Notes: a model not told the origin generated them from the letters alone. A stretch of 32,000 nt of DNA from Parasynechococcus marenigrum WH 8102 (GCF_000195975.1 NC_005070.1:2130001-2162000); one strand, 5' to 3'; numbered from the stretch's first letter, positions 1 to 16,259 are shown. Made by a program: numbers and translations.

Positions 1-1
1 C

Positions 2-1051: not shown

Positions 1052-1065
1052 ACTGCGTCATTACA

Positions 1066-1091
1066 TAAAAAAGCCTCCCTTTCGGGAGGCT
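1066..1091 (-). terminator. intrinsic terminator of psbD, lying between convergent genes
   Basis: Stem AGCCTCCC / GGGAGGCT with loop TTTC. On the minus strand it is followed by a T-run (plus-strand AAAAAA at 1066-1071). It sits 20 nt downstream of the psbD stop. Confidence 0.8.
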
Positions 1092-1111
1092 GGTAACTAT
1101 GGTCTTTGAAA

Positions 1112-2167
1112 TCAGAGGGCGTTGCCGCGGGGCAGAACCTCTTCAGGGAAGACGAAGTTTTCGTGCGGCTGGTCAGCCGGTGCCATCCAGGCACGCAGAC
1201 CTTCATTCAGAAGGATGTTCTTGGTGTAGAAGGTCTCGAATTCGGGATCTTCTGCAGCGCGGATTTCCTGCGACACGAAGTCGTAGGCGCGCAGGTTGAG
1301 GGCCAAGCCGATGATGCCAATGGAGCTGGTCCACAGACCCATCACAGGCACGAACAGCATGAAGAAGTGCAGCCAGCGCTTGTTGGAGAAGGCGATCCCG
1401 AAGATCTGACTCCAGAAGCGGTTGGCGGTGACCATGGAATAGGTCTCTTCTTCCTGAGTGGGCTCAAACGCCTTGAAGGTGTTGGCCTGCTCACCGTCCT
1501 CAAACAAGGTGTTTTCCACGGTGGCGCCGTGAATGGCGCAGAGCAGTGCACCGCCGAGGATGCCGGCGACGCCCATCATGTGGAATGGGTTCAGGGTCCA
1601 GTTGTGGAAGCCCTGGAGGAAGAGGAGGAAGCGGAAGATCGCAGCCACACCGAAGGAGGGCGCGAAGAACCAGCTGCTCTGGCCGAGGGGGTACATCAGG
1701 AAGACGCTGACGAACACCGCGATCGGACCGGAGAAGGCGATGGCGTTGTACGGGCGGATGCCGACCAGACGAGCGATTTCGAACTGACGCAGCATGAAGC
1801 CGATCAGTGCGAAGGCGCCGTGCAGGGCCACGAAGGCCCAGAGGCCGCCGAGCTGGCACCAGCGAACGAAGTCGCCCTGGGCTTCAGGGCCCCAGAGCAG
1901 CAGCAGGCTGTGACCCATCGCATCAGCGGGGGTGGAGACAGCAGCGGTGAGGAAGTTGCAACCTTCCAGGTACGAGGAGGCAATGCCGTGTGTGTACCAA
2001 GAGGTGACAAAGGTGGTGCCTGTGAGCCAGCCACCGATGGCCAGGTAGGCCGTGGGGAAAAGGAGGATGCCGGACCAGCCGACAAAAACGAAGCGGTCGC
2101 GCTTGAGCCAGTCATCGAGGATGTCGAACCATCCCCGCTGAGGCGCGCGTCCTACAGCGATCGTCAT
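1112..2167 (-). CDS. psbD: photosystem II D2 reaction-centre protein
   Basis: 351 aa. N-terminus [33 protein letters not shown] and C-terminus ...[11 protein letters not shown] are the canonical D2 sequence. Confidence 0.98.
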
Positions 2168-2331
2168 GAGAAAGGCGCTTCATGAAGCGTTACACGACAA
2201 CCCTAGGTGTTGTTTTCCGTCCTGGAGCAAGAAATCCGTACCAGGGCGAAACGATGAGTAGAAATGCCCAGGCGTGAACAGTCAGGCGCGCTGCTGCTCC
2301 GCGAGAATGAGTTCCTTGAGACATCAATGCC

Positions 2332-2595
2332 GTGTACGTCATCGAACTTGCCCTGCGCATGAGCCCCGTCCCGGTGTCCGTACAGCGCAAGGAGGCCGAG
2401 GCCGCTGAAGCTCTTTACCAACAGATCCGACAAGCCCTGGAGAGCGGTCAACCCCGCCTGCTGGAGCTCACCTGCGAGAAAGTTGAAGGCAAGAAAGTCA
2501 CCCTGCTGATCAGTGAGGTTCTCGCCGTTCAGCTTTATGAGAAGACTGCTGCGACGGGCGGCAGCAAGCGCCCCGGCTTCTCCTTTGACTCCTGA
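2332..2595 (+). CDS. small conserved hypothetical protein
   Basis: 87-aa ORF with a GTG start, host-like GC and plausible composition. It is immediately upstream of, and overlaps, the ABC ATPase gene. Family not recognised. Confidence 0.55.
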
Positions 2596-3274
2596 GACCG
2601 CGACCGCTGAGCTTCGGATCACAGGCCTGAGCCATAGGTGGGCCAATGGTCAGACTGTTCTTGACGATTGCAATCTCGTCATCCCGAAGCCTGGTCTCTG
2701 GATGCTGGTTGGCTGCAACGGCAGTGGCAAAAGCACCCTGTTTCGCCTGATCGCAGGGCTGATCGAACCGCAATCCGGATCGATCAGCACCGACCATCAA
2801 TCGGCTCTGGTATTTCAGAACCCGGATCATCAACTGCTCCTGCCGAGCTGCAGCAGCGATCTGTTGCTGGGCATGGATCAAGGCCTCGGCAACAGCGAAC
2901 GCCGCGAACGCATCCGACTGCGGCTGGAGGAACTAGGACTGGCAGGCCTGGAGCGCCGACCGATCCATGCCCTCAGTGGTGGCCAGAAACAGAGACTGGC
3001 CATTGCCGGAGCCCTGGCCAGCGAGGCGAGCCTGCTGTTGCTGGATGAACCGACGGCTTTGCTCGATCCAGACAGTCAGTCCAGCGTGCTCGCCGCCGTT
3101 CAGGAGCTCTGCCGACGACCAGAAGCCCCCCTCACAGCGCTGTGGATCACCCACCGGCTTGAGGAACTGACCTGTGCCGATGGCGCAGCGGAGATGCGTG
3201 CGGGGCGTATTGGTCCGTGGATGTCAGGAATAAAACTGCAACGACGCTTGCAGCACGGGAGCTCTGACAGGTAA
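2585..3274 (+). CDS. ABC transporter ATP-binding protein (CbiO/EcfA-like)
   Basis: Walker [10 protein letters not shown], signature [12 protein letters not shown] and Walker B LLLLDEP. The start is uncertain: TTG 2585 gives a normal N-terminal length, and ATG 2537 or GTG 2513 are also in frame. Confidence 0.85.
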
Positions 3275-3290
3275 GTTCTTCGGGAGTCAC

Positions 3291-3362
3291 TCCTCGGTAG
3301 CTCAGCGGTAGAGCGGTCGACTGTTAATCGATTGGTCGCAGGTTCGAATCCCGCCCGGGGAG
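3291..3362 (+). tRNA. tRNA-Asn (anticodon GUU)
   Basis: Cloverleaf folded by hand. Acceptor stem TCCTCGG/CCGGGGA, D-arm GCTCAGCGGTAGAGC, anticodon loop CTGTTAA, T-loop TTCGAAT. There is one A-C mismatch in the T stem and no encoded CCA. Confidence 0.9.
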
Positions 3363-3366
3363 CTTG

Positions 3367-3395
3367 AAAGCCACAGCGTTTGCTGTGGCTTTTTT
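3367..3395 (+). terminator. intrinsic terminator after tRNA-Asn
   Basis: 11-bp stem AAAGCCACAGC / GCTGTGGCTTT, loop GTTT, followed by a T-run. Confidence 0.85.
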
Positions 3396-3641
3396 ATCGA
3401 CAAAAAAGGAATTTTCATGACAACCGATTGCCCGAAGCGGAAGACTTCCTGAACAGCCGCCTCGGCTCAGCCAATCACCATGGCGCAAGATCGCCTGCAG
3501 TGCAGTGGATCTCAGGGATCAACCTGAAATTCCTCTCACAACGCAAAATCTGCACTCACCCGAAAAGCTTGAGAGAATCCGTTCAGCGTCGCTCCAGAAG
3601 ACCAGCGCTCCGTTTTCTTTTCTTGTTCCGCCCCTAGATCG

Positions 3642-4430
3642 ATGAAGCCTTGCATCCTGTTGATCGAAGACGACCAGGACATGCGCGACCTGGTGAGCGG
3701 CCATTTGGAGCACAGTGGCTTTGACGTTCAACGGGCCGATGACGGCATCAAGGGCCAGGCCCTTGCGCTCCAGTACACCCCGGATCTGATCCTGCTGGAC
3801 CTCATGCTGCCCAAAGTCGATGGCCTGACCCTCTGTCAGCGCCTGCGCCGCGATGACCGCACCTCCGGCATCCCGATCCTGATGCTCACGGCCCTCGGCG
3901 GCACCAAGGACAAGGTCAGTGGGTTCAACTCAGGCGCCGACGACTACCTCACCAAGCCCTTTGATCTGGAAGAGCTGCAGGCGCGGGTGAAGGCACTCCT
4001 CCGCCGCAGTGATCGTGCTCCCGTGGGCTCGAGCAACCACAACGAAATCCTCAGTTACGGACCGCTCACCCTTGTTCCTGAGCGGTTTGAAGCGATCTGG
4101 TTCGACACCCCGGTGCGACTCACCCACCTGGAATTCGAACTGCTCCACTGCCTGTTGCAACGCCACGGACAGACCGTCGCTCCATCCCTGATTCTCAAAG
4201 AGGTCTGGGGCTACGAACCGGACGACGACATCGAAACCATTCGTGTTCACGTGCGTCATCTGCGCACCAAACTTGAACCTGACCCGCGCAAGCCACGCTT
4301 CATCAAGACCGTGTACGGAGCCGGCTACTGCCTTGAGTTGCCGATCGGTGGCGAGCTGGACGACCTTCAAGATGTTGTTGCCATCGCCCGCAATGAGCGC
4401 AATCAAGACAGTGAACGGGCCAGCGCCTGA
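3642..4430 (+). CDS. rpaA: OmpR-family response regulator, RpaA-like
   Basis: Receiver domain ([11 protein letters not shown]..., [22 protein letters not shown]) plus a winged-helix C-terminus. GIKGQALA and the overall sequence match my memory of cyanobacterial RpaA. Confidence 0.8.
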
Positions 4431-4433
4431 GCC

Positions 4434-5378
4434 TTACTTACCGGTTGTCAGCTCCAGCAACGCCACCTCCCAGGCGAGGCGTGGCTGAACGAAAGACAGC
4501 AATTGGCGCCGCAGTGTTTCCAGGCGTTGCAACGGTCGATCACCGGCACCACGGGCCCACAGCTGCTGCTGCCACCAGTTGATTAACCACAGCTGTTGCT
4601 CACCATCGAGGGCTTCACACACATCCCGGGCGAGAGCCAAGGCTTCCATGGGTTGATCCCGCATAGATGCCAATCGCCCCGTGAGCTCCTCGGGCAAGCC
4701 TGCCCGCTGGCGCCGATGCTCCAGCAGAGCACCCGGTGAACCAGCCGCCATGGCCAGCAGCTCCGGCGGATCGTGCTCAGCAACCGCTCCACAACCCTCC
4801 AGCACACGATTCAGATCCGCCTGGGCCAGCCGCAGGAAGCGAATCAGCTGACATCGTGAGCGGATCGTGCTCAGCAACCGCTCCGGCGCAGCCGAAAGCA
4901 GAATCAACAGCCCGTGTCCTGGCTCCTCCAGGGTCTTCAGCAGAGCATTGGCCGCGGCCTCCGGCATCGCCTCCACCGCTTCGATCACCACCATGCCCCG
5001 TTCAGCCTCCACCGGTTGACGGGCCAGGAAGCGGCTGATCGAGCGGACCTGCTCCAGCCGTAGCTGAGGCGGCGTGCGGCGGGTGATCCCGGCCTCCTCG
5101 GCTTCCTCCCGGGTCAGCAGACGACCCTGGTGCTGAAACGTCGGCTCAACCCAGAGCAGGTCGGGATGGTTGCGCTCCTCCAGCCGCCGTCGCTGCCGCT
5201 CCGCTTGTTGCCCCGCCCCCAGCACACCCTCCAGAAATCGCACGGCTGCCAGCCGACGGCCCACACCATCAGGGCCGGCGAACAGATAAGCCGGTGCCAG
5301 GCGCTGCCGGTTCAACGCGGCTTTCAGCAGATCCACCGCCAAGGGTTGACCGATCAGGTCCTCGAAAAGATTGGTCAT
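4434..5378 (-). CDS. holB: DNA polymerase III delta' subunit
   Basis: MTNLFEDLIGQPLAVDLL...AYLFAGPDGVGRR, typical of the clamp-loader delta' subunit. ATG 5378 is chosen because it overlaps the tmk stop as ATGA; the track ORF extends to 5456. Confidence 0.8.
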   Translation of the reverse strand: MTNLFEDLIGQPLAVDLLKAALNRQRLAPAYLFAGPDGVGRRLAAVRFLEGVLGAGQQAERQRRRLEERNHPDLLWVEPTFQHQGRLLTREEAEEAGITRRTPPQLRLEQVRSISRFLARQPVEAERGMVVIEAVEAMPEAAANALLKTLEEPGHGLLILLSAAPERLLSTIRSRCQLIRFLRLAQADLNRVLEGCGAVAEHDPPELLAMAAGSPGALLEHRRQRAGLPEELTGRLASMRDQPMEALALARDVCEALDGEQQLWLINWWQQQLWARGAGDRPLQRLETLRRQLLSFVQPRLAWEVALLELTTGK

Positions 5379-6004
5379 CCCAGGCGGTCCATCAGTTCCC
5401 GTTCCAAGGCGCGGCTCACGGCCTCCGGCGGACGATCCGCCGCAATGGCCGACCACTGCCGCTGCTCGGCAATGGCCGCAAACCCGTCAATGACGCGCTG
5501 CAGAAAGACCTGCCCCTCTGCTTCGATGCGGTCGGCCTGATCACCCTGCCGGCGCCGCAGACTCTCCTCCAGCGGCAGGGTCAACCACAGGGTGAGATCC
5601 GGTTGCACACCCGCGGTGGCGATCCGTTCCAGCTGATCGATGAGCTGGCGATCCAAGCCCCGGCCATAGCCCTGATACGCCATGGTCGAGCCGGAGAATC
5701 GATCGCTGATCACCCAATCGCCCCGTTCCAGGGTTGGGAGGATCAGCCGCTCCACGTGTTGGGCGCGATCCGCTGCGTAGAGCAACAATTCCGCCGTTGG
5801 CGCCGGAGCCTGCTCCGCCCGTGTGTGCAGAAGAAGCTCGCGCACGGAACGGCCCAGCGGCGTCCCCCCCGGTTCCCTGGTGCTGATAAGCTCGGCCCCT
5901 GCCGGCATCAGTCCGCTGCCCGGCAGCCAGCCCAAAAGATGATCGAGCTGCGTTGACTTGCCGCAGCCATCAATCCCGTCGAGAACAATGAAGCGACCGC
6001 TCAT
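5375..6004 (-). CDS. tmk: thymidylate kinase
   Basis: P-loop FIVLDGIDGCGKST, DRF motif region, 209 aa. Confidence 0.9.
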   Translation of the reverse strand: MSGRFIVLDGIDGCGKSTQLDHLLGWLPGSGLMPAGAELISTREPGGTPLGRSVRELLLHTRAEQAPAPTAELLLYAADRAQHVERLILPTLERGDWVISDRFSGSTMAYQGYGRGLDRQLIDQLERIATAGVQPDLTLWLTLPLEESLRRRQGDQADRIEAEGQVFLQRVIDGFAAIAEQRQWSAIAADRPPEAVSRALERELMDRLG

Positions 6005-8316
6005 GCCACCCGCAGCAGCAGGGCATTGAGCACCACCGTGATCGAACTGATGGCCATCAGCAAGGCCGCCAGGGGCGGGGACAGCAGCACCCCCTGACTC
6101 GGCAGCAGGGCACCGGCGGCAAGGGGCAGGGCGATCAGGTTGTAACCGAATGCCCAGAACAGGTTCTGCCGAACCTTGGCCAGGGTGCGGCGGGCTAGGG
6201 TCAACGCTTCCGGCAGGTTGTCCAGACGATCTCCCATCAACACCATGCCGGCGGTGTCCTGGGCGATCTGTGTGCCGGTGCCGATGGCGATGCCCAGATC
6301 AGCCGCGGCCAAAGCCGGCGCATCGTTGATGCCATCTCCCACCATGGCGACCCGCCCCCGTTGGCGCAGCTCCTCCAGACGCTGCAGTTTCTGCTCCGGC
6401 AGCATCTGCCAGCCCAGATCAGCCGCCTCAAAGCCCAGCTGCTGACCCAAGGCACGCACGGCCGGCTCGCGGTCACCGCTGAAGATCGCCAGGGCAAGGC
6501 CCTGCTGACGCAAGCGTTCCAGCGCCGGCACCACATCGGCACGCAGCTGGTCTTCGATCTGAACCAATCCCAGCAACGCACTGCCATGGGCCACCGCCAC
6601 CACGGAGCCATCGGCCTGAGCAAGCCAGGTCCTGGCTTCATCGCTGAGGGCAACGCCGAATGAACCCAGCCAATCGGGACGTCCCACCCGGATCGGTTGA
6701 GGCCAACCCTCCACCTCGCCCACCAGACCCTGCCCGGACACGGTGGTGACCTGCACTGGTTCCAGCAGGGTCAGGTCCCGTCGCTGCGCCTCCTGCAGCA
6801 GGGCATGGGCCAGGGGGTGACGACTGCTCTGCTCGAGGCTTGCGGCCAGCTGCAGCAGCAGAGCCGCGTCCTTGGCCCACACGCTGGTCACCAGCGGGCG
6901 TCCGAGGGTGAGGGTGCCGGTCTTGTCGAACACAACGTGATCGAGGCCGGCGGCGGTTTCGATCACATCGCCGCCGCGGAACAACCAGCCCCGCTGCGCT
7001 GCCAGACCAGTGGCCACGGTGATCACGGTGGGGGTGGCCAGACCAAGGGCACAGGGACAGGCCACCACCAGCACAGCGATCGACAACTGCAACGCCAACC
7101 CGACCGGGGAGGTGGCACCACTGCCGAGGCCGCCGTGATGCATCGCATGGCCACTGGTCATCAGATGCCCCTGGGGCATGCCAGGTGCTGACGCCTGCAT
7201 CACCTGAGGCCATTGAGAAGCGCCGAACAGCCACCAGAACAGGAAGGTGGCCAGGGCAAGAGCGATCACGCCGTAGCAGAAGCGTCCGGCTACGCGATCC
7301 GCCAGCCCCTGAATCGGGGCCCGACGCGCCTGGGCCTGCTCCACCAGGCGTATGATACGCGCCAGCGCCGTTTCCGCTCCAACCCGCGTGACCTCCAGCA
7401 CGAGCGGTGCATCGAGGTTGAGGCTGCCGGCGGACAGCTCAAGTCCGGGTTCTGCCTGCCAGGGCAGCGGTTCACCGGTGAGGCTGGAGGCATCCACCGC
7501 CGAATACCCCTCCACCACAACACCATCCACGGGCACACGGTCCCCCGCCAGCAGCTGCAGCCGCTCCCCGGGGCGCAAGGCCCCGACCCGAACATCCCGG
7601 ATGGCGCCATCCGGCAGTACCAGACGGGCCGTATCGGGTTGCAGCTGGGCCAACTGATGCAGCGCCTGACCGGTGCGGAAGCGGGCCCGTTCCTCCAGGA
7701 AGCGCCCAAGCAACACGAAACCCAGCAGCATCACCGGCTCGTTGAAAAAACAGGGCCAGCCCACCTGGGGCCAGATCAGTGCCACAAGACTGGCCAGATA
7801 GGCGCTGCCGACCCCCAGACCCACCAGGGTGTCCATGCTTGGCGCAGCCGCCCGGGCAGCCGCGAATCCACCCAGCAGAATCGGCCGACCGGGACCCAGC
7901 AAGGCCACGGTGGCCAGCGCGGCATGGAACGGCAGGCTGCCGATCAGGGGCAACGACAGATGGCCGGCCTCGCTGAGGTGACCAAGCACCGACAGCAGCA
8001 GCAGTGTGAGGGCCACCATAAGTTGGCGCCACTGCTGCCACCAGGTCAATCCGGAAGCTCCAGTCGCAAGCCGAGCGGACGATGGCTCCAGGGAGCGTTC
8101 ACGGGCCGGAAATCCACGACTGGCCAAGGCCCCGAGTACGGCGTCGACATCGCCATCGGCTTCGCTGAGATCTAGCCATGCCGCACGGCTCACCAGGTTC
8201 ACATCAGCGCGCTGCACCCCCGGCTGCTCGAGCAAGGTGCGCTCCACGGCTCGTACACAGCCTCCGCATTTCATCCCCTCCACATCGAGGACGACGGTCT
8301 GAACCGCAGGACTCAC
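6001..8316 (-). CDS. copper-translocating P1B-type ATPase (CtaA/PacS family)
   Basis: N-terminal HMA motif [11 protein letters not shown] motif [10 protein letters not shown], phosphorylation site DKTGTLT, hinge GDGINDAP. Confidence 0.93.
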
Positions 8317-8390
8317 TGGCGCTTGTTCGTTACGGCAAGGCTAGGTCGGGTGCTGTTCCCGTCAGGATGGGGGCCTTCCGCCGGAGCGCC

Positions 8391-8912
8391 GTGCCCCGCA
8401 GTAATCGCAACGACAACTTCATCGACAAAAGCTTCACGGTGATGGCGGACCTGATCGTCAAGCTGTTGCCGATCAACGCCCGATCCAAGGAGGCATATGT
8501 CTATTACCGCGATGGCCTCTCCGCTCAGAATGATGGCGACTACGCCGAAGCGCTGGAGAACTACGACGAGGCGCTGAAACTCGAGGACAACCCCACCGAC
8601 CGTGGGGAGACCCTCAAGAACATGGCGATCATCTACATGTCCAACGGCGAGGAGGAGCGGGCGATTGAGACGTACCGCAGAGCCCTGGACGAAAACTCCA
8701 ACCAGCCGTCATGCCTCAAGAACATGGGGCTGATCTTTGAGAAATGGGGGCGGATCGCCGAAGAAGACGGCCGCCAGGATGACGCCGATCGCTGGTTTGA
8801 CCAGGCCGCCGAGGCCTGGACCCAGGCGGTGCGCCTCAACCCCGGTGGCTATCTGGACATCGAGAACTGGTTGAAATCCACCGGGCGCAGCAACGTCGAC
8901 GTCTACTTCTGA
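8391..8912 (+). CDS. ycf3: photosystem I assembly protein Ycf3 (TPR)
   Basis: The GTG start gives the canonical 173-aa protein, (V/M)[14 protein letters not shown]...NVDVYF. ATG 8367 is an alternative start. TPR-like repeats are present. Confidence 0.9.
8899..8911 (+). repeat. left direct repeat (putative attL core) ACGTCTACTTCTG
   Basis: Identical 13-mer at 14861-14873. Overlaps the last codons and the first two bases of the stop codon of ycf3. Confidence 0.85.
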
Positions 8913-8969
8913 CAAATGCACCTCCTAAGAATCCAGTCATAGAGCGGGATTTGACGAGGTGCGCTAAAG

Positions 8970-10388
8970 TTGTTCCGAGTCTGTTCCAACAGGGTCGTGC
9001 CAAAAGTCCTCGAAAAGCGGAAAGTCGCCGGAATCAAAGGTGACATCGTTTTGCTTCAACGCGGGCACAATTCGATTGGTTACTACTACCGGGAATACAG
9101 GTCGCTCACCCGTGACTACAAGTTTCAGAAAATCGAAGGCGCCAAGGACATGTATGAGGCGTGCGAGCAAGCCGTTGATATTGCATTCAAGTTTAAAAGT
9201 GAATTCTCAAAAGAGAAGAAGGTTATAAGCGAGCAAGTTGGCGTATACGCACCAAAAAGACAAAGCAGAAAAAGATATAAGCCAATTAAAGCAGCAATAG
9301 ATGAATATCTTGGCGAGGAAGAGAAGAGGGCACGATCTGGTCTCATACAACCTGGCACTTTCAAGACTAAGAATGAATCCTTCAGGCTGTATATCGAACC
9401 TTATATAGCCTCAAAAGGCATTAAGTATACGCAACAGATAGATCACAGCACCTTTGAAGAATATTTTATTTATCGAGCACGAACAACAGCTCTGATGCGG
9501 CAGAGAGAACTTGCTTTCATAAAGCAATGGATCAATAATTATCTACTTCCTAACAAGCTGCTGAATGAAATGCCATCAAAAGCATGGTATCCGCGACAGA
9601 TCGTCAGACAAACGGATCGAATGGCTAACCCAGCTATAAATCCAGCTGATTGGAAAGTAATTATTGATTACATTCGTGATGATTGGCGACATTATCATGA
9701 GCAGGGAGGAATGAAAGGACCTGCAACAAGAATATGGCGAGATGCCTTTTGGCATTTCTGCCTATTCATGAAAAATACCGGGATGAGTCCTGAGGAGATC
9801 TTGAAACTCAAATGGAAAAACGTCGAGATACGAGACATAGGCAGGATTGACAGCAAAGGCGAACGACAAGAATGGCTAGTTGCGTACATCAACACAATCC
9901 GAGCGAAGACACAACAGATGCGAGAAATACCAACTAACCAAGGCAAAGAACTAAAGAGATATATGCAGATGCTGAAGGACTACTGCGCTAAGTACAAGAT
10001 TCCAAATTCAATAGGACCTAACACGCTGGTCTTTGGCAATCCAAATCTAAACTTCGAACCATATGGCCACTGGCGATACGGAAGGTGCTGGCGTGAAATC
10101 AGAGAAGAACTAGCCGACAAGCTCAAAGGCCACAAGTTCAGCAATCACCCATACACCCTGTACTCAATGCGAGCAACATTTATAGAAGATCATCTGCGTA
10201 GAGGCACAGACATCTTTCTACTGGCACGGATGGCTGGCCACGACGTCAAAGAATTAATGAAGAGCTACGAAAGACTTGACATAAGAGAAAGAACCAAAGA
10301 AATAACGACAATTGAATTCGGCAAGCAGAAAAGCAAGGAGGAAGACTTCCTGATCGACCTGATGCAACCAGAAGACGATCAAATCTGA
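8970..10388 (+). CDS. tyrosine recombinase / phage-type integrase (atypical active site)
   Basis: C-terminal catalytic domain: TGMSPEEILKLKWKNV (box I region), IRAKTQQMREIP, YSMRATF (HxxR position), AGHD, and KSYERL (nucleophile Tyr). The start is uncertain: TTG 8970, GTG 8997 or ATG 9150. Confidence 0.85.
   Translation: MFRVCSNRVVPKVLEKRKVAGIKGDIVLLQRGHNSIGYYYREYRSLTRDYKFQKIEGAKDMYEACEQAVDIAFKFKSEFSKEKKVISEQVGVYAPKRQSRKRYKPIKAAIDEYLGEEEKRARSGLIQPGTFKTKNESFRLYIEPYIASKGIKYTQQIDHSTFEEYFIYRARTTALMRQRELAFIKQWINNYLLPNKLLNEMPSKAWYPRQIVRQTDRMANPAINPADWKVIIDYIRDDWRHYHEQGGMKGPATRIWRDAFWHFCLFMKNTGMSPEEILKLKWKNVEIRDIGRIDSKGERQEWLVAYINTIRAKTQQMREIPTNQGKELKRYMQMLKDYCAKYKIPNSIGPNTLVFGNPNLNFEPYGHWRYGRCWREIREELADKLKGHKFSNHPYTLYSMRATFIEDHLRRGTDIFLLARMAGHDVKELMKSYERLDIRERTKEITTIEFGKQKSKEEDFLIDLMQPEDDQI
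8971..8990 (+). repeat. two TGTTCC repeats 11 bp apart (putative arm-type or operator sites)
   Basis: TGTTCCgagtcTGTTCCAAC. Same motif and orientation as the clusters at 11490-11518 and 14776-14823. Confidence 0.6.
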
Positions 10389-10429
10389 GGCCTCGGCCGA
10401 AAAACAGGTTTCTCAATAAGGGTGAATTA

Positions 10430-10476
10430 TTGACAATTCGCGCATGCGCGAAATTTGAGACTGCTCACGAAATTTG
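10430..10476 (+). promoter_or_regulatory. putative promoter/operator upstream of the 295-aa ORF
   Basis: Consensus -35 TTGACA (10430-10435) is directly followed by the perfect 16-bp palindrome TTCGCGCATGCGCGAA (10437-10452). Two CGAAATTTG direct repeats follow (10449-10457, 10468-10476). No convincing -10 found. Confidence 0.4.
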
Positions 10477-10523
10477 CCATATGCCAAACAAGAGGTTAAT
10501 TTGGCTTTAGAGAACAACTCACA

Positions 10524-11411
10524 ATGACTACTAGCACTACAACAAAAGATCGTCACATTACTGACGAAGAATTTGAAGATATTCTTGAATCAGATACATC
10601 TCAGAAGCTGTCCATGTCGATTGAGAGGCAGCCATCGGCTTTATCTCAATCAGATATCGAGCCTGGCCTGCAGGAAACATTCAATGAGAACTGGGAAGCC
10701 AGTATTATCAGCGGACTAACACCGGATCAAATAAGATTACTCAAAGAAAGAACATATTATGCCAATAAATATTACTGGGCTGCTGGCAAATCAATCAGAG
10801 AGACAGCCAGATACTTAGCTGAGATTAGAGAAAATTGCCAAACAGGAACATGGATGGCATTATGCGAAAGCAACAAGCTTAATATCAGCTCCTCGAAAGC
10901 CCGCGAGCTCGCTAATGTATGGGATAAATGGTTAAAGCATGACTACACTATTCCAGAGCTTGCACTCGTTGATGTCTCCACTCGTACACTCAACTTCGTG
11001 GCAAACATCAAAGACGAGGAAACAAAATTAAAAGCAGTAGGATTACTTCGTGACGGCAACAAGATTTCCGAAGATAAATTAAAAGCTATTTTGAAGGAGA
11101 AGAAAACAGCTACAGATGAAGAAAAAGCCAAGGCAAAGCTGAAAAAAGAATTGGATGAGATTGAAAAAGATGCTTCACTGACTGACTACTCAAAACTTGT
11201 CAAGAAGAGTATCAAGCAAAGTGAATTTAAACTCTCTCAAATGCCGGCAAGGATCAAGAAACTCCAGCAAGAAAACAAGGAATTAGAGGAAAAGCTCGAT
11301 GCCTTGAAAGAGGCAGCCAAAGGCCCTGAAGAAGCAAAGGCCTACATTGAAAAGATACGAGCAACTGCACAAGCCAAGAGAGAAGAAACCTCCTTTGCAC
11401 GCAAAGGCTGA
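10524..11411 (+). CDS. hypothetical protein: acidic N-terminus, central region reminiscent of DUF3102, Lys/Glu-rich coiled-coil C-terminus
   Basis: 295-aa ORF with an ATG start, followed by two hairpins. The segment AAGKSIRETARYLAEIRENCQTGTWMALCESNKLNISSSKARELANVW resembles the DUF3102 pattern from memory only. Confidence 0.7.
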   Translation: MTTSTTTKDRHITDEEFEDILESDTSQKLSMSIERQPSALSQSDIEPGLQETFNENWEASIISGLTPDQIRLLKERTYYANKYYWAAGKSIRETARYLAEIRENCQTGTWMALCESNKLNISSSKARELANVWDKWLKHDYTIPELALVDVSTRTLNFVANIKDEETKLKAVGLLRDGNKISEDKLKAILKEKKTATDEEKAKAKLKKELDEIEKDASLTDYSKLVKKSIKQSEFKLSQMPARIKKLQQENKELEEKLDALKEAAKGPEEAKAYIEKIRATAQAKREETSFARKG

Positions 11412-11448
11412 AGACAAGGGTTCTAAAACCCTGCTTGGAAAGAATTCA

Positions 11449-11474
11449 AGCCTCTACATAAGCAGGGGCTTTTT
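11449..11474 (+). terminator. intrinsic terminator after the 295-aa ORF
   Basis: Stem AGCCTCT / AGGGGCT (one G-U pair), 8-nt loop, then TTTTT. Confidence 0.6.
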
Positions 11475-11489
11475 CATGTTGAGCAGGCA

Positions 11490-11518
11490 TGTTCCATGTC
11501 TTATGCATATATGTTCCA
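11490..11518 (+). repeat. two ATGTTCCA repeats 22 bp apart
   Basis: cATGTTCCATG (11489-11498) and atATGTTCCAaa (11511-11518), in the same orientation as the end clusters. Confidence 0.6.
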
Positions 11519-11915
11519 AAATTCTCTGGAAAGCCAGTGGGGATGGGGGTTGCAAAAGTCTTGGTATAACGTCGACGCCAGACGAGACTCCTAAAATTGC
11601 TAGAGCGGTGGTAGCTAATCAAATTAGTAGCCAAATATAGAGTCGCCTTGTATAAACGAGTAGAAAATATCAGAAGCAAGAATTAACTACAATCTCAACC
11701 TGCCAGCTCAACTAAATTCATCAATTTAAGCAAAAGGGTAATCACATCTGCTATCACAATATATACACAATTCAAAGGATTTTAAAAGCATTGCTTGATT
11801 TAACCCTCTATTAGCTTGAGTCACGCACAGGGCAAAAATTAGAAACACCTAGAAGGAAATATATAATCAAAACTTTTACGTGAACTGTGTAGATCTAGGT
11901 ATGAAAAACTTATGA

Positions 11916-11937
11916 CGTTACGCTCGTTACGCTCGTA
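11916..11937 (+). repeat. 9-bp tandem repeat CGTTACGCT x2.4 (iteron-like)
   Basis: CGTTACGCT CGTTACGCT CGTA, read directly, inside the AT-rich non-coding stretch. Confidence 0.8.
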
Positions 11938-12047
11938 GCACCGTAATCTATATAAGTGCTGTATTAATACCAGCTACGTTTACCATGCCGCCTTTCCCTC
12001 TTATGTCTTTCAACTAGTGTATTAAAAAAAGAATATATAAGGGCTTT

Positions 12048-12100
12048 AGCGTAACGAGTTTTATAACTTTGCAGTCATACCAATGCTTTTGCTCGTTACG
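12048..12100. repeat. inverted pair of the same CTCGTTACG motif, separated by 33 nt
   Basis: AGCGTAACGAG (12048-12058) is the reverse complement of 11923-11933. GCTCGTTACG (12091-12100) is a direct copy of 11922-11931. Confidence 0.8.
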
Positions 12101-12267
12101 GTCTATTTTGTGATTAAGCCAATTTATAAGATTAAACTTTTCCAATATCTCATCAGATATAAAAAAGTTAAAACTAAATTTTGAGATAAAGAAACCCATA
12201 AGATCATGAAAGCATTCAAAGGGTAAGAAGCAAAGTCTGTTAAAATATATGCAAAGCAGCTCAAGAA

Positions 12268-12465
12268 ATGAATATCGAATCAATCGAGACAGCATTATCT
12301 AGAGCAAAAAGGTTTCATCTTGGTAATAATGCGAGAGCTAGATACAACGCACCTGGTGATGACACCAATATTACAATCAATACCAAAGAAAAAGTAGTTG
12401 TTGAGAAGCTTTATTTGGTTATGAATATGGATGATTACTGGGGAACGAAAGATAAAGAAAATTAA
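12268..12465 (+). CDS. hypothetical small protein (65 aa)
   Basis: ATG-started ORF in the island with plausible hydrophilic composition. No recognisable motif. Confidence 0.4.
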   Translation: MNIESIETALSRAKRFHLGNNARARYNAPGDDTNITINTKEKVVVEKLYLVMNMDDYWGTKDKEN

Positions 12466-12554
12466 ATGTACGGTAACTACGAAAAAGAGATGCAACATTA
12501 CCCAACCCTGCGTTCCAACTGATAGTTAGCTTCGAAGTAATTTAATTGAATCTC

Positions 12555-12809
12555 ATGCCACGTTTTCGCAAAGGTCAATTGACTTCAAAGACTGATTTCG
12601 AATATGCAATCTATTGGGAACATTTGAGAGCTGAATATTTCAGAGTTAAAGGAAATCAATCCCAATATGACGAGTGCTTAAGGAGAATCACAGAACTAGA
12701 ATGGCGGAATGCAACACGATTTAGTGCAGACGAAATTGATATCTCTTCAAACAATGATTTACAAGATATTGGCATTGTGCCATCCGATGAAATCTCTATA
12801 AAAGACTAA
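12555..12809 (+). CDS. hypothetical small protein (84 aa; 87 aa if TTG 12546)
   Basis: ORF in the island. A GTTCCAAC motif lies 43 bp upstream of the ATG. No recognisable motif. Confidence 0.45.
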   Translation: MPRFRKGQLTSKTDFEYAIYWEHLRAEYFRVKGNQSQYDECLRRITELEWRNATRFSADEIDISSNNDLQDIGIVPSDEISIKD

Positions 12810-12886
12810 AACTGATAAAAAATTTGCGAGACATCTAATATCATCTGAGATGAGTAATCCGGCTGAACAAAAAAAATAAACATCAA

Positions 12887-13156
12887 CTATGGACAATTGA
12901 TTCTTTCCATCCCAGCTTTGATTGTCTGCTCTTGTTCTCTGAGCTGCTCTATTTCAGCAAGAGCAGGAATAGCAGGCACAAAGGCATTAACTTGAACTGT
13001 GAGAAATGTAACTTCTTCATTCTTTATTTCACGCAATGCGTTAGCACCTGATAGACAAGCAAGAGTTACTGACTTCAGGTCAGCATCCTCTTTTTTCTCC
13101 ACCTTCTTGATTGATGAGATAGCTGAGTGTATATTCTCCATCAGGTTTCCAGTCAT
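12887..13156 (-). CDS. hypothetical small protein (89 aa from ATG), the only minus-strand island ORF
   Basis: ATG-started ORF. The frame stays open 28 codons further upstream and encodes a signal-peptide-like segment (see findings). Confidence 0.45.
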   Translation of the reverse strand: MTGNLMENIHSAISSIKKVEKKEDADLKSVTLACLSGANALREIKNEEVTFLTVQVNAFVPAIPALAEIEQLREQEQTIKAGMERINCP

Positions 13157-13339
13157 TGCGAATACTGTAGTTGGAGTAAGTGCAAGTAATGCACACAGAA
13201 CTATTCCTAGTAATCGGCTAATATCAGTTAGTGGCTTCAGTCAATTCTAATTTCTATAGCCATATGAGCAAGAGCTTTCAGTAAGACAACGCCGGCTAAC
13301 GCCGGCTTTATCGGTTAATGTCCATTCGGAGTTAACCCG

Positions 13340-13723
13340 ATGACATTTCAAACAGTTCCCATTGCATCAGCACAGCTCGACCAACTTGCGGACAATATCC
13401 CTGGGTTCACCAGTGATTAGCAATTACTGAAGGATACGCTACAAACAACGATCTTCGTGTCTGGAGCATCTTCTTCATCTGATGGCCGCGCTTCTTACAT
13501 CCTTGGAAATGAGGGTGAACGTGTGTGGCTTCCTAACACTCTGACATGCTGGATTAACGATCTCAAGATTGTTACTCAAACCTACGAACAATATGATCCT
13601 GTTGAAAAGCTACTTGTTTATGTGACAAGTATAACTCGACATCATGGGTCTACCGAATGGGCTTTGATTCATGGGCAAGCTCGTCATTGCTTACAATCAT
13701 CAAATCGATGTCACCAACAATGA
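13340..13723 (+). pseudogene. 127-codon reading frame interrupted by one in-frame TAG (13418-13420): nonsense-disrupted or readthrough gene
   Basis: ATG 13340 through TGA 13723 is a single frame with one internal amber codon. The track only reports the GTG-started distal part, 13457..13723. Confidence 0.5.
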
Positions 13724-14055
13724 TCAAAAAGCGTATTCAAATTAGCCTTAGGCCTAAAGGTCGCGCTTGTTTTGTTGATGTTTCTGCAATCACAGAAGAT
13801 CAATCTGATTACAAGCGTGTTCAAATCAAGGATATTGATTTAGGCCGCAAGCTCGGATACACCGAGATGCTCGATGTCATTTCGTATTTCCATTTGGCAC
13901 AATCCAGCATGCAAGCCCAGATGGCTCAAGCACCTGTCGAACCCAAGCAGCTACCAGCAAGCTCCGAGAGCTCTTCAGAAGCTCTTGAAGCTATGGCTAA
14001 ACCCAGGCGATCTAGGCGCAAGTCCAAAGCACCTGCAAAGGCTACAACCGCATGA
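13720..14055 (+). CDS. hypothetical protein with Ser-rich linker and basic C-terminal tail (111 aa; 132 aa if ATG 13657)
   Basis: ATG 13720 overlaps the upstream stop as ATGA. The C-terminus is KPRRSRRKSKAPAKATTA. Two strong terminators follow. Confidence 0.55.
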   Translation: MIKKRIQISLRPKGRACFVDVSAITEDQSDYKRVQIKDIDLGRKLGYTEMLDVISYFHLAQSSMQAQMAQAPVEPKQLPASSESSSEALEAMAKPRRSRRKSKAPAKATTA

Positions 14056-14061
14056 ATACAT

Positions 14062-14091
14062 AGCCTCGCATTTCTAGCGGGGCTTTTTTTG
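14062..14091 (+). terminator. intrinsic terminator (first of a tandem pair)
   Basis: Stem AGCCTCGC / GCGGGGCT, loop ATTTCTA, then TTTTTTT. Confidence 0.8.
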
Positions 14092-14100
14092 ATACTTGAT

Positions 14101-14126
14101 AGCCGGTTAACACCGGCTGTTTTTTT
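14101..14126 (+). terminator. intrinsic terminator (second of the tandem pair)
   Basis: Stem AGCCGG / CCGGCT, loop TTAACA, then GTTTTTTT. Confidence 0.75.
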
Positions 14127-14206
14127 AGTGGTCGAAATGTAAAAGATGGATAGTTCCAACCAGGATCTTGCGGCATCAACAACTTCGGCCACCAAACCCA
14201 CTAGCT

Positions 14207-14437
14207 ATGCACACTATGCGCTTCAAAATCCCAGGCCGCGACATCCAAGTTCGCATTGTCGAACGTGTCATGACGAATGACCCACAATATGACATATTTG
14301 ATGTTGGTATTGAGTACCAAGATGGATCAATTGATTCACTCGTCGTACCAGGAAGCGGCTCTTACAAATCGGCAAAGGCTTTTGTCAAACGTATTGACGA
14401 CAAAGCGCAGACAAAAGAATCAATTGCTACAGTCTGA
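14207..14437 (+). CDS. hypothetical small protein (76 aa from ATG 14207; the track ORF starts at TTG 14168)
   Basis: ORF with a GTTCCAAC motif upstream (14153-14160) and a strong terminator downstream. Confidence 0.5.
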   Translation: MHTMRFKIPGRDIQVRIVERVMTNDPQYDIFDVGIEYQDGSIDSLVVPGSGSYKSAKAFVKRIDDKAQTKESIATV

Positions 14438-14445
14438 ATAAAATT

Positions 14446-14471
14446 GCCTGCAATAACTGCAGGCTTTTTTT
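14446..14471 (+). terminator. intrinsic terminator
   Basis: Stem GCCTGCA / TGCAGGC, loop ATAAC, then TTTTTTT. Confidence 0.85.
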
Positions 14472-14542
14472 ATTTTCTATCTATCTTTAGGCTTGCATTA
14501 CTAGCTGCATTTGCGAATATTTAAATAATTGGCATTGGAACG

Positions 14543-14731
14543 ATGGGTATTTTTGCTGCCACATTGTCAAGCGTAAGCATTTTAATTTCTATTCCACTTA
14601 TCCAAACGTATTTAAAGACTAATGAATCAAAACAGGCAATATTAATGGACTGTATTAGCAGGCAAATCATATCTCCGCTATGCACTGATTTGTATCTTCG
14701 AAATCCAGGCAAAACTTACGCTGGACATTAA
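14543..14731 (+). CDS. possible small membrane protein (62 aa)
   Basis: Hydrophobic N-terminus GIFAATLSSVSILISIPLI. It competes with antisense ORF 14521..14712. Weak call. Confidence 0.3.
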   Translation: MGIFAATLSSVSILISIPLIQTYLKTNESKQAILMDCISRQIISPLCTDLYLRNPGKTYAGH

Positions 14732-14775
14732 CGAACCTTTAAATTTTAAGAAGTGTTACAAACCTTAATAGGATC

Positions 14776-14823
14776 TGTTCCATGTCACGTTCCATGCTCT
14801 GTTCCATGTTTGTTCCGTTCCAC
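14776..14823 (+). repeat. array of five GTTCC(ATG) repeats with 12/12/11/5-bp spacing (putative arm-type sites)
   Basis: TGTTCCATG tcac GTTCCATG ctct GTTCCATG tt TGTTCC GTTCCAC. The array ends 38 bp before the right direct repeat. Confidence 0.75.
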
Positions 14824-14860
14824 TGACAGTGGCAAACCCTTTAGTATGACACGAACATGC

Positions 14861-14873
14861 ACGTCTACTTCTG
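14861..14873 (+). repeat. right direct repeat (putative attR core) ACGTCTACTTCTG
   Basis: Identical to 8899-8911. Contains the radA stop codon (CTA on plus, 14865-14867). Confidence 0.85.
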
Positions 14874-16259
14874 GTCCGTCACGTCCTCACCGAGGGCCAG
14901 CACCAGGGCCTCGGTGACCCCATCGGCCTCCAGGAGGGCAAGATCAAGACCACTGGCCAAGGCACCTAGTCCACTGCCACGGGGCACCACCGCCCGCCGG
15001 AATCCGAGCCGCGCTGCCTCCTGCAGGCGTAACTCCAGCTGACCGACCGGTCTGAGCTGCCCCCCCAGACCGAGCTCGCCGACCAGCACCGTCCCCGGCG
15101 GGAGGGTGAGATCGCGAAAACTGGCCACCACCGCAGCCGCCACCCCAAGATCCGCCGCCGGCTCCTCCACCTCCAGCCCACCGGCCACGGCCAGGTAACA
15201 GTCAAAGCGGGAGAGGGGTAACCCCATGTGCTTTTCCAGCACCGCCAGGATCTGGTGAAGCCGGTTGGTGCCGATGCCCGTGGCCGTGCGTCGAGGGCTG
15301 GCATAGCTGGTGACATTGACCAGGGCCTGCAGGTCCACCACCAGCGAACGTGATCCCTCACAGGCCACGATCGTGGCGACACCCGAGGCACGGGTTTCAC
15401 TCAGGAACAACTCGCTGGGATTGCTCACCTCCTCCAGGCCCTGGGCCTGCATCTCGAACAGTCCCAGTTCATGGGTGGCTCCGAAACGGTTTTTCACGGC
15501 CCGCAACAGCCGGTGACTGGCAAAGCGGTCCCCTTCGAAGGTGAGCACCGCGTCCACCAGGTGTTCCAGCACCTTGGGTCCAGCCAACATTCCCTCCTTG
15601 GTCACGTGGCCCACCAACAACAGGGCTGTGGTCTGGCGTTTGGCCAGCCGTTGCAAGGCGGCGGCACATTCCCGCACCTGACCAACCGAGCCGGGAGCAC
15701 TGGGGAGGTTGGCGTCGTGAAGTGCCTGGATGCTGTCGATGATCGCCACGGCAGGACGCAGGGCCTCCAGCTCCTCCAGCACCAGCTCGAGGTCGGTTTC
15801 CGCCAGCAGCTGCAGATCAGAGGGGCCACCCGCCAGGCGCTGCCAACGCAGCTTCACCTGCTGGGCCGACTCCTCAGCACTCACATACAGCACTGAGGTT
15901 TGAGCAGCCATCGTCGACGCGCTCTGCAGCAGCAGGGTGCTCTTACCGATGCCCGGATCTCCCCCCACCAGCACCAGGGAGCCCGGCACCAGCCCGCCAC
16001 CCAGCACCCGATCAAATTCACCGGAACCCGTTGGCAATCGCCGGATCGGCTGATCCTCCAGCGAGGCCATGGCTGTGGAGCGTTTCGGCGTCGATGGTCG
16101 GTCTGCATCGGGCGCACGGCGACGACGGCCGCCGTCATTGGCGGGCTGGGACTGCTCGACGAGGGAATTCCAGCTGCCGCACTCCGGGCAGCGCCCAAAG
16201 AACTGTCGTGACTGGGCTCCACAGACCTGGCAATGGAACACAACGGCGGATTTAGGCAC
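14865..16259 (-). CDS. radA: DNA repair protein RadA/Sms
   Basis: N-terminal zinc finger CQVCGAQSRQFFGRCPECGSW, Walker A GDPGIGKST, RadA motif KNRFG, Lon-protease-like C-terminal domain. Confidence 0.95.
   Translation of the reverse strand: MPKSAVVFHCQVCGAQSRQFFGRCPECGSWNSLVEQSQPANDGGRRRRAPDADRPSTPKRSTAMASLEDQPIRRLPTGSGEFDRVLGGGLVPGSLVLVGGDPGIGKSTLLLQSASTMAAQTSVLYVSAEESAQQVKLRWQRLAGGPSDLQLLAETDLELVLEELEALRPAVAIIDSIQALHDANLPSAPGSVGQVRECAAALQRLAKRQTTALLLVGHVTKEGMLAGPKVLEHLVDAVLTFEGDRFASHRLLRAVKNRFGATHELGLFEMQAQGLEEVSNPSELFLSETRASGVATIVACEGSRSLVVDLQALVNVTSYASPRRTATGIGTNRLHQILAVLEKHMGLPLSRFDCYLAVAGGLEVEEPAADLGVAAAVVASFRDLTLPPGTVLVGELGLGGQLRPVGQLELRLQEAARLGFRRAVVPRGSGLGALASGLDLALLEADGVTEALVLALGEDVTDQK

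Follow-up and report, generated by a model that had tools for sequence, protein, structure and literature searches.

A 5.95-kb integrative element in the overlap of ycf3 and radA in the marine cyanobacterium WH 8102

A 32,000-nucleotide stretch of the Parasynechococcus marenigrum WH 8102 genome (GCF_000195975.1, NC_005070.1:2130001-2162000; hereafter the window, with positions counted from its first letter) carries 5.95 kb of integrated DNA between the 3′ ends of ycf3 and radA, as does strain WH 8103. This island can be read with high confidence as a site-specific integrative element that entered the overlap of ycf3 and radA by means of its own lambda-type integrase and is now a decayed mosaic. 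Empty sites, both junctions of the attachment (att) site with the host (attL and attR), an attP-type junction in relatives, a recombinase fold (predicted) and conserved arm repeats are all directly in evidence. In the mechanism proposed, the integrase would recombine attP, a 14-bp core (ACGTCTACTTCTGA) between arms with YGTTCCR repeats, with an attB formed by the 10-bp overlap of the two convergent 3′ ends. The duplicated core spans the whole overlap, which keeps the ycf3 stop codon at attL and the radA stop codon at attR and leaves both genes undamaged. An A to G change at attR followed insertion, after which precise excision would cost ycf3 its stop codon.

A preliminary description, made from the sequence alone, had set the limits of the element at a perfect 13-bp direct repeat where host DNA gives way abruptly to AT-rich DNA; both features hold, and its interpretation is supported. 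Two same-strand copies of the 13-mer ACGTCTACTTCTG (8899-8911 and 14861-14873) are the only ones in the window; 0.02 matches are expected by chance and 0 of 100 shuffles gave two, so that the 13-mer is not a common genomic word. The G+C fraction changes at the repeats, from ~0.63-0.66 in the flanks to 0.41 between them. The repeat can be extended imperfectly to 20 nt (85 % identity), and the last four codons of ycf3 plus its stop codon lie within the attL core, the 13-bp left copy reaching only the TG of the stop. The sole tRNA gene of the window, tRNA-Asn (3291-3363), is 5.5 kb from the element; positions 1-8912 are collinear with the genome of Synechococcus A18-46.1 (98.6 % identity, 2 gap openings), and tRNA-Asn is therefore unoccupied, as originally described.

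Relatives were gathered by an exact look-up of the Ycf3 sequence, which gave 10 loci, nine of them empty and one occupied. The empty sites, which the preliminary description had anticipated in related genomes, come from five Synechococcus genomes (CP047955, which is A18-46.1, CP047960, CP047956, CP047934 and RHLE01) and four metagenome contigs. Their flanks are collinear with the window and 98.6-99.1 % identical to it, and all nine have a ycf3/radA overlap of 10 bp (…ACGTCTACTTCTGAtccgtc…) with one copy of the core, the site reading …AACGTCGACGTCTACTTCTGATCCGTCACG… in each. The target had been named as the tail-to-tail junction of the two genes; the convergent 3′ ends stand, and the site can now be narrowed to the 10-bp overlap of the two stop regions. 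At the tenth locus, WH 8103 (LN847356), the island is present and collinear, with 99.3 % identity overall.

The core substitutions record what happened after insertion. Position 14 of the core is A in the WH 8102 attL and in every empty site (…CTTCTGA), and attR reads …CTTCTGG in WH 8102 and WH 8103; because attL and all empty sites share this A, the core was originally 14 bp. The attL of WH 8103 reads …CTTCTAA. On the radA strand the empty site is GAT CAG AAG TAG, in which the attR change from A to G is synonymous (GAT to GAC), and the same change would turn the ycf3 stop TGA into TGG. The G to A change in the WH 8103 attL (TGA to TAA) would convert the radA codon CAG to TAG in the overlapped state. 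Both substitutions would have been harmful had the overlap persisted and became tolerable only once the insertion had separated ycf3 and radA, as follows directly from the sequences. With the attR G shared and the stop codon at 13418 unchanged between the two strains, the island of WH 8102 and WH 8103 appears to be inherited from a common ancestor.

The tyrosine-recombinase gene that had been described just inside the left repeat begins 85 bp from it, and its product matches the PHROGs integrase family phrog_1 (2e-14). In WH 8102 the 100 % identical protein is annotated as having 'weak similarity to phage integrase family', and the match to Pfam PF00589, at 21.6 bits, falls under the gathering score of 27.1. 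Judged by its predicted structure, the protein is a divergent, three-domain, lambda-like tyrosine recombinase. The AF2 model, made with 34 family members, has a predicted local distance difference test score (pLDDT) of 84.4 and comprises an N-terminal beta domain (four-stranded, residues 1-45), a helical domain and a catalytic domain. The top Foldseek matches of the model are full-length lambda Int (1z1g and 1z1b; 405-440 aligned columns, E ~1e-7), and Cre, XerA and Tn1549 Int are also matched, over a range of E from 1e-7 to 1e-5. Sequence comparison with solved structures gave no match to the catalytic domain and only a weak match of the N-terminal helical domain to 3nrw. Residues R283, K304, H379, R392 and Y424 are invariant across the 34 family members. 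The usual TGxR of the first catalytic arginine is replaced by TGMSPEE throughout the family (residues ~260-285 in the window integrase), and the invariant R283 lies ~20 residues downstream; either the active-site arginine would be relocated or the alignment is unusual in this family. Between WH 8102 and WH 8103 the integrase gene has 10 synonymous and 3 non-synonymous changes with the open reading frame (ORF) intact, and it looks to be under purifying selection.

In the arms that flank the core the repeats are kept and the surrounding bases vary. Both repeats of the P′ arm are invariant in WH 8103 and in three environmental loci (L028, L032 and L033). The five repeats of the P arm fall within 47 bp (14776-14822) at ~12-bp phasing, of 30 plus-strand YGTTCCR matches in the 32 kb; this arm is 85 % identical to that of L032, and four of its five repeats are invariant. 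Four plus two arm repeats are retained in environmental elements that are 85-88 % identical. These repeats are candidate arm-type sites that would be bound by the N-terminal beta domain of the integrase, and strand exchange would be placed within TACTTCT, around which there is weak dyad symmetry in both attP (GTGCACGTC-TACTTCT-GACAAACGCAC) and attB. The attP sequence expected for the WH 8102 copy is …GAACATGC-ACGTCTACTTCTG-ACAAATGC….

Junctions of the attP type came from protein-identity look-ups in ENA assemblies only, and close homologues of the 295-aa protein encoded next to the integrase (80-87 % identity) are confined to environmental assemblies. The L032 contig (ENA ERZ17093070, 4,091 bp) has 321 bp of AT-rich DNA to the left of the core ACGTCTACTTCTGA, the last 120 bp of which are 85 % identical to window positions 14754-14873, the right end of the element. 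On the other side of the core the contig continues with the element's left end and the integrase gene, followed by a gene for the 295-aa homologue, by two small ORFs and by the first part of another ORF (55 aa), which the contig end cuts off. The L028 contig (a Tara Oceans scaffold, 5,412 bp) begins with 9 nt identical to the WH 8103 right end (CGAACGTGC) and then the core; it is collinear with L032 and runs into an ORF (599 aa or more) that has a DUF3987 domain (Pfam, 3e-21; phrog_2373 DNA helicase). By this collinearity, the cut 55-aa ORF of L032 is probably the start of the helicase gene. The circular junction predicted in the preliminary description is present, with 2 base differences, in these two independent assemblies of an 88 %-identical relative as right end, core and left end, an arrangement in which a free circle and a tandem array look alike. 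A further environmental variant (L033) is integrated at ycf3 in the attL form, and the element family thus has attB, attL, attR and an attP-type junction on record.

The resident copy is composed of two modules. Homology with the helicase-bearing relatives ends at ~11764, and the ORFs from 12268 on match an island of A18-46.1 with 41-93 % amino-acid identity. With a left module (the integrase plus the 295-aa protein) like that of the helicase-bearing elements and a right module like that of the A18-46.1 island, the WH 8102 element is therefore a mosaic, and it is partly decayed, its integrase intact. This sister island (L011, 9840-17195; 7.3 kb) has the kdsA 5′ end on one side and the pcrA/uvrD start on the other, carries an integrase 55 % identical to that of the window, and is flanked by its own 14-17-bp repeat, CGATAGCCTCCAGC(C/A)AT, whose right copy overlaps the pcrA ATG. 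The ycf3/radA site of A18-46.1 is empty. Apart from the integrase, the element had been described as orphan small ORFs, which is not true of all of them: the 295-aa protein is a conserved companion of the integrase across the family, and the right half is shared with the sister island.

The core substitution at attR bears directly on the present mobility of the element. Wherever recombination fell in the 13 bp common to attL and attR, the restored attB would contain the attR G, and Ycf3 would therefore gain 56 residues; this read-through after a hypothetical precise excision is seen as an ORF at 14857-15042 with a 56-aa tail. Because precise excision would abolish the ycf3 stop codon, the island would be effectively locked in. 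The WH 8102 copy is probably a relic, passed on by vertical descent and for the most part immobilised, that the host would now pay a penalty for losing, and the helicase-bearing relatives would represent the mobile form.

Several observations weigh against the reading of a site-specific element inserted by its own integrase. The attP-type junction could derive from tandemly integrated copies instead of a free circle, and the P arm in L028 amounts to just 9 nt. Exact-match scans for the attP and attL junctions (…CTTCTRACAAATGCAC and …CTTCTRACAAAYGC) in IMG/VR and the JGI metagenomes gave 0 matches, and the 12 public contigs with an identical integrase are all (12/12) of the integrated form, with no excised circle of the WH 8102 copy among them. 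No island ORF has a match to Xis, AlpA or HTH_17 in Pfam, PHROGs or NCBIfam. Given the TGMS motif and the PF00589 score below the gathering threshold, the catalytic competence of the integrase is presumptive. Further, over window positions 8912-14860 the islands of WH 8102 and WH 8103 differ by 1.46 %, and the flanking core genes by 0.15-0.49 %, so that the island has diverged 3-10 times faster than its flanks; relaxed constraint is the suggested cause, though a mutational bias of AT-rich DNA or recombinational homogenisation of the flanks could also account for it.

It is almost certainly not the case that the AT-rich segment is an ancestral, immobile one that was deleted in the relatives, with the 13-mer a product of chance or of deletion microhomology. 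Deletions between short direct repeats do occur and the island is present in two strains, but the nine independent empty sites are identical and preserve the exact functional overlap of two conserved genes, and a chance repeat with deletion in the relatives was rejected on these nine sites together with the environmental attP-type junction. The foreign composition (0.41 vs 0.65 GC), an integrase 85 bp from the junction, the element ends found joined in environmental DNA, and the siting of family members at the ends of other genes, each between flanking repeats of its own, all speak for insertion instead. A more serious candidate, though still an improbable one, is an internally deleted relic of a ~17.7-kb temperate phage or phage satellite with virion genes. 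Integrases of 49-50 % identity do occur with a 295-aa homologue on ~17.7-kb virus-like contigs (L012 and L062), and the resident copy contains pseudogenes. Set against this, both ends of the element are intact and match the attP arms of small environmental relatives, the closest of which (88-91 % nucleotide identity) carry a helicase and not virion genes, and the sister island of A18-46.1 is also small (7.3 kb) and without virion genes. No remnant of a virion or helicase gene was found in the island by tblastn, and neither the integrase nor the 295-aa protein has a match in 50,697 GenBank phage records.

There is a lesser but appreciable chance that the element is still active and excisable, in the manner of a tycheposon (the tRNA-associated elements of Prochlorococcus discussed below) or a satellite, under stress or phage infection and with functions for replication and transfer borrowed from the host or a helper. 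The integrase ORF is intact and its changes are mostly synonymous (10 vs 3), attL and attR agree at 13 of 14 core positions and throughout the candidate crossover segment TACTTCT, the arm repeats are intact, and the attP form exists in nature for relatives. Mitomycin C induces many genes in the atypical-GC regions of WH 8102, among which the present island is not singled out (PMC3744912). Continued activity is opposed by the TGG that excision would put in place of the ycf3 stop with its 56-aa extension, by the lack of a replication gene and of a recognisable excisionase, by the pseudogenes, and by the integrated form being the only one in the 12 public contigs. A formerly mobile, now largely immobilised element inserted at the ycf3/radA overlap remains the preferred account.

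The coordinates of the element and its neighbours are collected in Table 1.

Table 1. Features of the ycf3-radA interval. Positions are those of the window, except in the last row.
Feature	Position	Strand	Remarks
ycf3, photosystem I assembly protein, 173 aa	8391..8912	+	NCBIfam NF002725 equivalog, 312 bits, 1-173/173
attL core ACGTCTACTTCTGA, 14 bp	8899..8912	+	first 13 bp as in attR; source of the ycf3 stop codon
P′ arm	8913..8996	+	two direct YGTTCCR repeats (8971-8977, 8982-8988), just 5′ of the integrase gene
Tyrosine integrase, 463 aa from GTG 8997	8997..10388	+	mechanical ORF from TTG 8970, 472 aa
295-aa all-alpha protein	10524..11411	+	C-terminal coiled coil; companion of the integrase
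AT-rich non-coding spacer	11412..12267	.	31-37 % GC
Terminator-like hairpin	11448..11471	+	after the 295-aa gene
65-aa ORF	12268..12465	+	42 % identical to a sister-island ORF (A18-46.1)
87-aa ORF	12546..12809	+	74-77 % identical to a sister-island ORF that has a paralogue there
111-aa-type gene	12887..13222	-	N-terminus with a hydrophobic stretch, possibly a signal peptide
Pseudogene of a 240-aa protein	13340..14055	+	intact in A18-46.1
Two terminator-like hairpins	14062..14121	+	after the pseudogene
89-aa ORF (conserved part ~73 aa)	14168..14437	+	74-75 % identical to a sister-island ORF
Bidirectional terminator-like hairpin	14446-14464		after the 89-aa ORF
62-aa hydrophobic ORF	14543..14731	+	41 % identical to a sister-island ORF
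P arm	14754..14860	+	five direct YGTTCCR repeats (14776, 14788, 14800, 14811, 14816)
attR core ACGTCTACTTCTGG	14861..14874	+	G at position 14 (A in empty sites); holds the radA stop and last codons
radA, DNA repair protein RadA/Sms, 464 aa	14865..16259	-	NCBIfam TIGR00416 equivalog, 577 bits
EVE-type repeat TACTGGCTAATGA in related loci	L047 7911-7923 and 13546-13558		also L016, L042-L045, L049, L051, L058, L059

A homologue of the 295-aa protein adjoins the integrase in L011, L012, L013, L028, L031, L032 and L033 and is distal to it in L014 (24-30 % identity). Of the 46 relatives that a profile search returned, none carries a Pfam domain, and the AF2 model (pLDDT 72.7) has structural matches below threshold to Spo0J/Noc (E ~1) and to a DUF3102 phage protein (E 0.027). 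A DUF3102-like or ParB helix-turn-helix (HTH)-like character of the modelled protein is a weak lead only. Its gene has 4 synonymous and 8 non-synonymous changes between WH 8102 and WH 8103. In three culture-derived contigs (L018-L020) the gene following that of the integrase is annotated with a length of 185 aa in place of 295 aa (compare P0139, 99 % over 63 % of the query), which may reflect the choice of start codon or polymorphism in WH 8102 cultures. Two more TGTTCC motifs, as in the att arms, stand at 11490 and 11512, 22 bp apart, just past the terminator of this gene. Within the spacer the 9-mer CTCGTTACG forms a cluster at 11923 (+), 12050 (-) and 12092 (+), with a near-copy at ~11914; 0.07 matches are expected in the whole window, and the cluster, which may be of operators or iterons, is conserved in WH 8103 and L033.

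Decay is visible in the right module. The 111-aa-type gene has an Ile codon in WH 8102 at the ATG start of its A18-46.1 homologue, which leaves an ORF of 89 aa, and 111 aa are called in WH 8103. The pseudogene has an in-frame stop at codon 27 (13418-13420) that the alignment of the two strains shows unchanged in WH 8103, followed by a frameshift at ~13633 specific to WH 8102, in place of which a stop of its own occurs later in the WH 8103 gene. The island is enriched in terminator-like hairpins (15 vs 5.3 ± 2.1), which are sited after the main ORFs. The preliminary description had recognised no replication, packaging, transfer or excisionase gene, and Pfam, PHROGs, PADLOC and NCBIfam likewise find none in the WH 8102 copy, nor any defence gene or any function for the island ORFs beyond the integrase. 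PADLOC gave no match for 9 island ORFs or homologues, nor for the L028 helicase, and no structural match to prophage genes (capsid, portal, terminase, tail or lysis) fell below E 0.01 in PHROGs or Pfam. The 57-aa ribbon-helix-helix protein of the sister island has no homologue in the WH 8102 island by tblastn, and Rfam found no RNA family there at E ≤ 1.

The choice of a protein-gene end extends to the integrase family. A profile search over one genome per species gave 28 integrase loci, all in Synechococcus or Prochlorococcus and including many AG-series single-cell genomes. A tRNA gene adjoins the integrase in none of the 28 and lies within 8 kb in just two, at ~2 and ~7 kb. Examined members sit at protein-gene ends, and Rfam found no RNA gene at the att sites tested. 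The preliminary description had set the non-tRNA target of this element against islands mostly reported next to tRNA/tmRNA genes; that the element is not at a tRNA stands, but the preference belongs to the whole family and not to this copy alone. Members in low-light Prochlorococcus use a His_Phos_1 gene, at its 3′ end, and the repeat there is imperfect and 37 nt long. An EVE-domain gene is used at its 5′ end in about a dozen Prochlorococcus loci, with the core TACTGGCTAATGA, often in 3-4 same-strand copies; the gene start at this repeat reads MTDCNYWLMKSEP…, and each locus has 1-4 copies on one strand, ~100-120 bp upstream of the integrase. These copies suggest stacked elements seeded at the start of a protein gene and not at a tRNA. 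An origin of TACTGGCTAATGA as a tRNA or tmRNA fragment was considered and rejected: the sequence is the 5′ end of the EVE-domain gene, with no RNA gene there by Rfam or ARAGORN. Further targets are the 5′ side of an rsmE-like gene and, in A18-46.1, the pcrA start, and short direct repeats, different for each integrase, immediately precede the integrase start codon.

More distant integrases (49-50 % identity) occur with the 295-aa homologue on the virus-like contigs L012, L013 and L062. L012 (1-21419) has a self-repeat period of 17,692 bp, that of a circle or concatemer, and L062 is an IMG/VR uncultivated virus genome (UViG) of 17,723 bp. L012 encodes a C5 DNA methylase, an HTH_23/Terminase_5-like protein and T7-like internal virion proteins (phrog_6651 and phrog_19560, the latter having a lysozyme domain), and no capsid, portal or large terminase gene was recognised; it may represent a small phage or else a satellite. 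As noted above, GenBank phage records gave no tblastn match to the integrase or the 295-aa protein of the window. In a related Prochlorococcus island (L014, 13680-14145) there is an iteron-like array of ~28-nt units with GTATACAGG, which may be a replication origin. It is a tentative proposal, somewhat short of an even chance in our estimation, that the integrase and its 295-aa companion mark a distinct, so far undescribed lineage of picocyanobacterial elements that systematically target protein-gene ends in place of tRNAs, ranging from 6-kb cargo islands via helicase-bearing replicative forms to 17.7-kb virus-like circles with T7-type internal virion proteins. If true, this would be a second island-seeding system beside the tRNA-targeting tycheposons.

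With this element, the att system of a non-tRNA integrative element of marine Synechococcus is documented in full, from attB through attL and attR to an attP-type junction, and it shows how a single 14-bp duplication preserves two overlapping convergent genes. It also constitutes a natural experiment, in that attR (TGA to TGG) and the WH 8103 attL (TGA to TAA) each changed after the overlap was split, and the change at attR should now penalise loss of the island. The integrase, the 14-bp core and the arm repeats together are a candidate tool for site-specific integration into a neutral conserved locus of marine Synechococcus. Island-finding pipelines anchored on tRNA genes will miss this integrase family, and its non-tRNA site preference merits a systematic survey.

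Islands of WH 8102 have been noted before. As cited in PMC3744912, Palenik et al. 2003 describe regions of atypical G+C adjoining phage integrases; the present island fits what is quoted there (atypical G+C, an adjoining integrase) and may be one of those regions. Genomic islands of Synechococcus were treated by Dufresne et al. 2008 (PMC2441476), and neither that paper nor the other literature searched was found to describe the ycf3/radA overlap, its empty or occupied att site, or an attP form.

The closest comparison is with tycheposons, which together with 'cryptic' integrase-only elements were described in Prochlorococcus and integrate at seven tRNA/tmRNA genes, at the proximal end of an island, with a replication module (primase, helicase or polymerase) as a hallmark (Hackl et al., bioRxiv 10.1101/2020.12.28.424599); tycheposon-like insertions of Synechococcus lie at tRNA-Phe (PMC8995045). 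The present element shares with tycheposons the host group, a size within 2-20 kb, low GC, a tyrosine recombinase at one end, a mosaic make-up and many unknown ORFs. Its relatives also have a helicase replication module (DUF3987, L028) and, in Prochlorococcus, stacked copies separated by att repeats, and its integrase family is confined to Prochlorococcus and Synechococcus. In contrast to tycheposons and the tRNA-Phe insertions, all of which are at tRNA or tmRNA genes, attB here is the ycf3/radA overlap, with tRNA-Asn left unoccupied, and in the WH 8102 copy no primase, helicase, polymerase or packaging gene was found by Pfam, PHROGs, tblastn or NCBIfam. PICI-like satellites (phage-inducible chromosomal islands) combine an integrase with a primase-helicase, a gene that redirects packaging (terS or capsid) and a regulator; of these the present island has the integrase only, with a helicase in relatives alone and no terS or capsid gene found.

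Integration at protein-gene ends is already well known in other bacteria. The site of the SGI1 island is the 3′ end of trmE/thdF. Like the present element, the dusA and SGI1 islands have an integrase at the terminus of a conserved housekeeping gene, carry a copy of that terminus, leave the gene intact and are flanked by short direct repeats. The dusA-specific integrases target the dusA 5′ end (PMC4482086; for SGI1, PMC2297512). Here, unlike in those islands, one duplication of a shared 10-bp overlap restores two frames on opposite strands, and the integrases have no detectable sequence relation (a weak Pfam match; phmmer against the PDB without a match). Compared with lambda, the integrase is likewise predicted to have three domains and the core is flanked by arms with short repeats distinct from the core, but identity to lambda Int is only 12-13 %, a Xis was looked for without success, every arm motif is in direct orientation with tight ~12-bp phasing, and TGMS stands in place of TGxR. 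By these comparisons the WH 8102 element is an integrative island of an ordinary kind, and what is unusual about it is its non-tRNA landing site.

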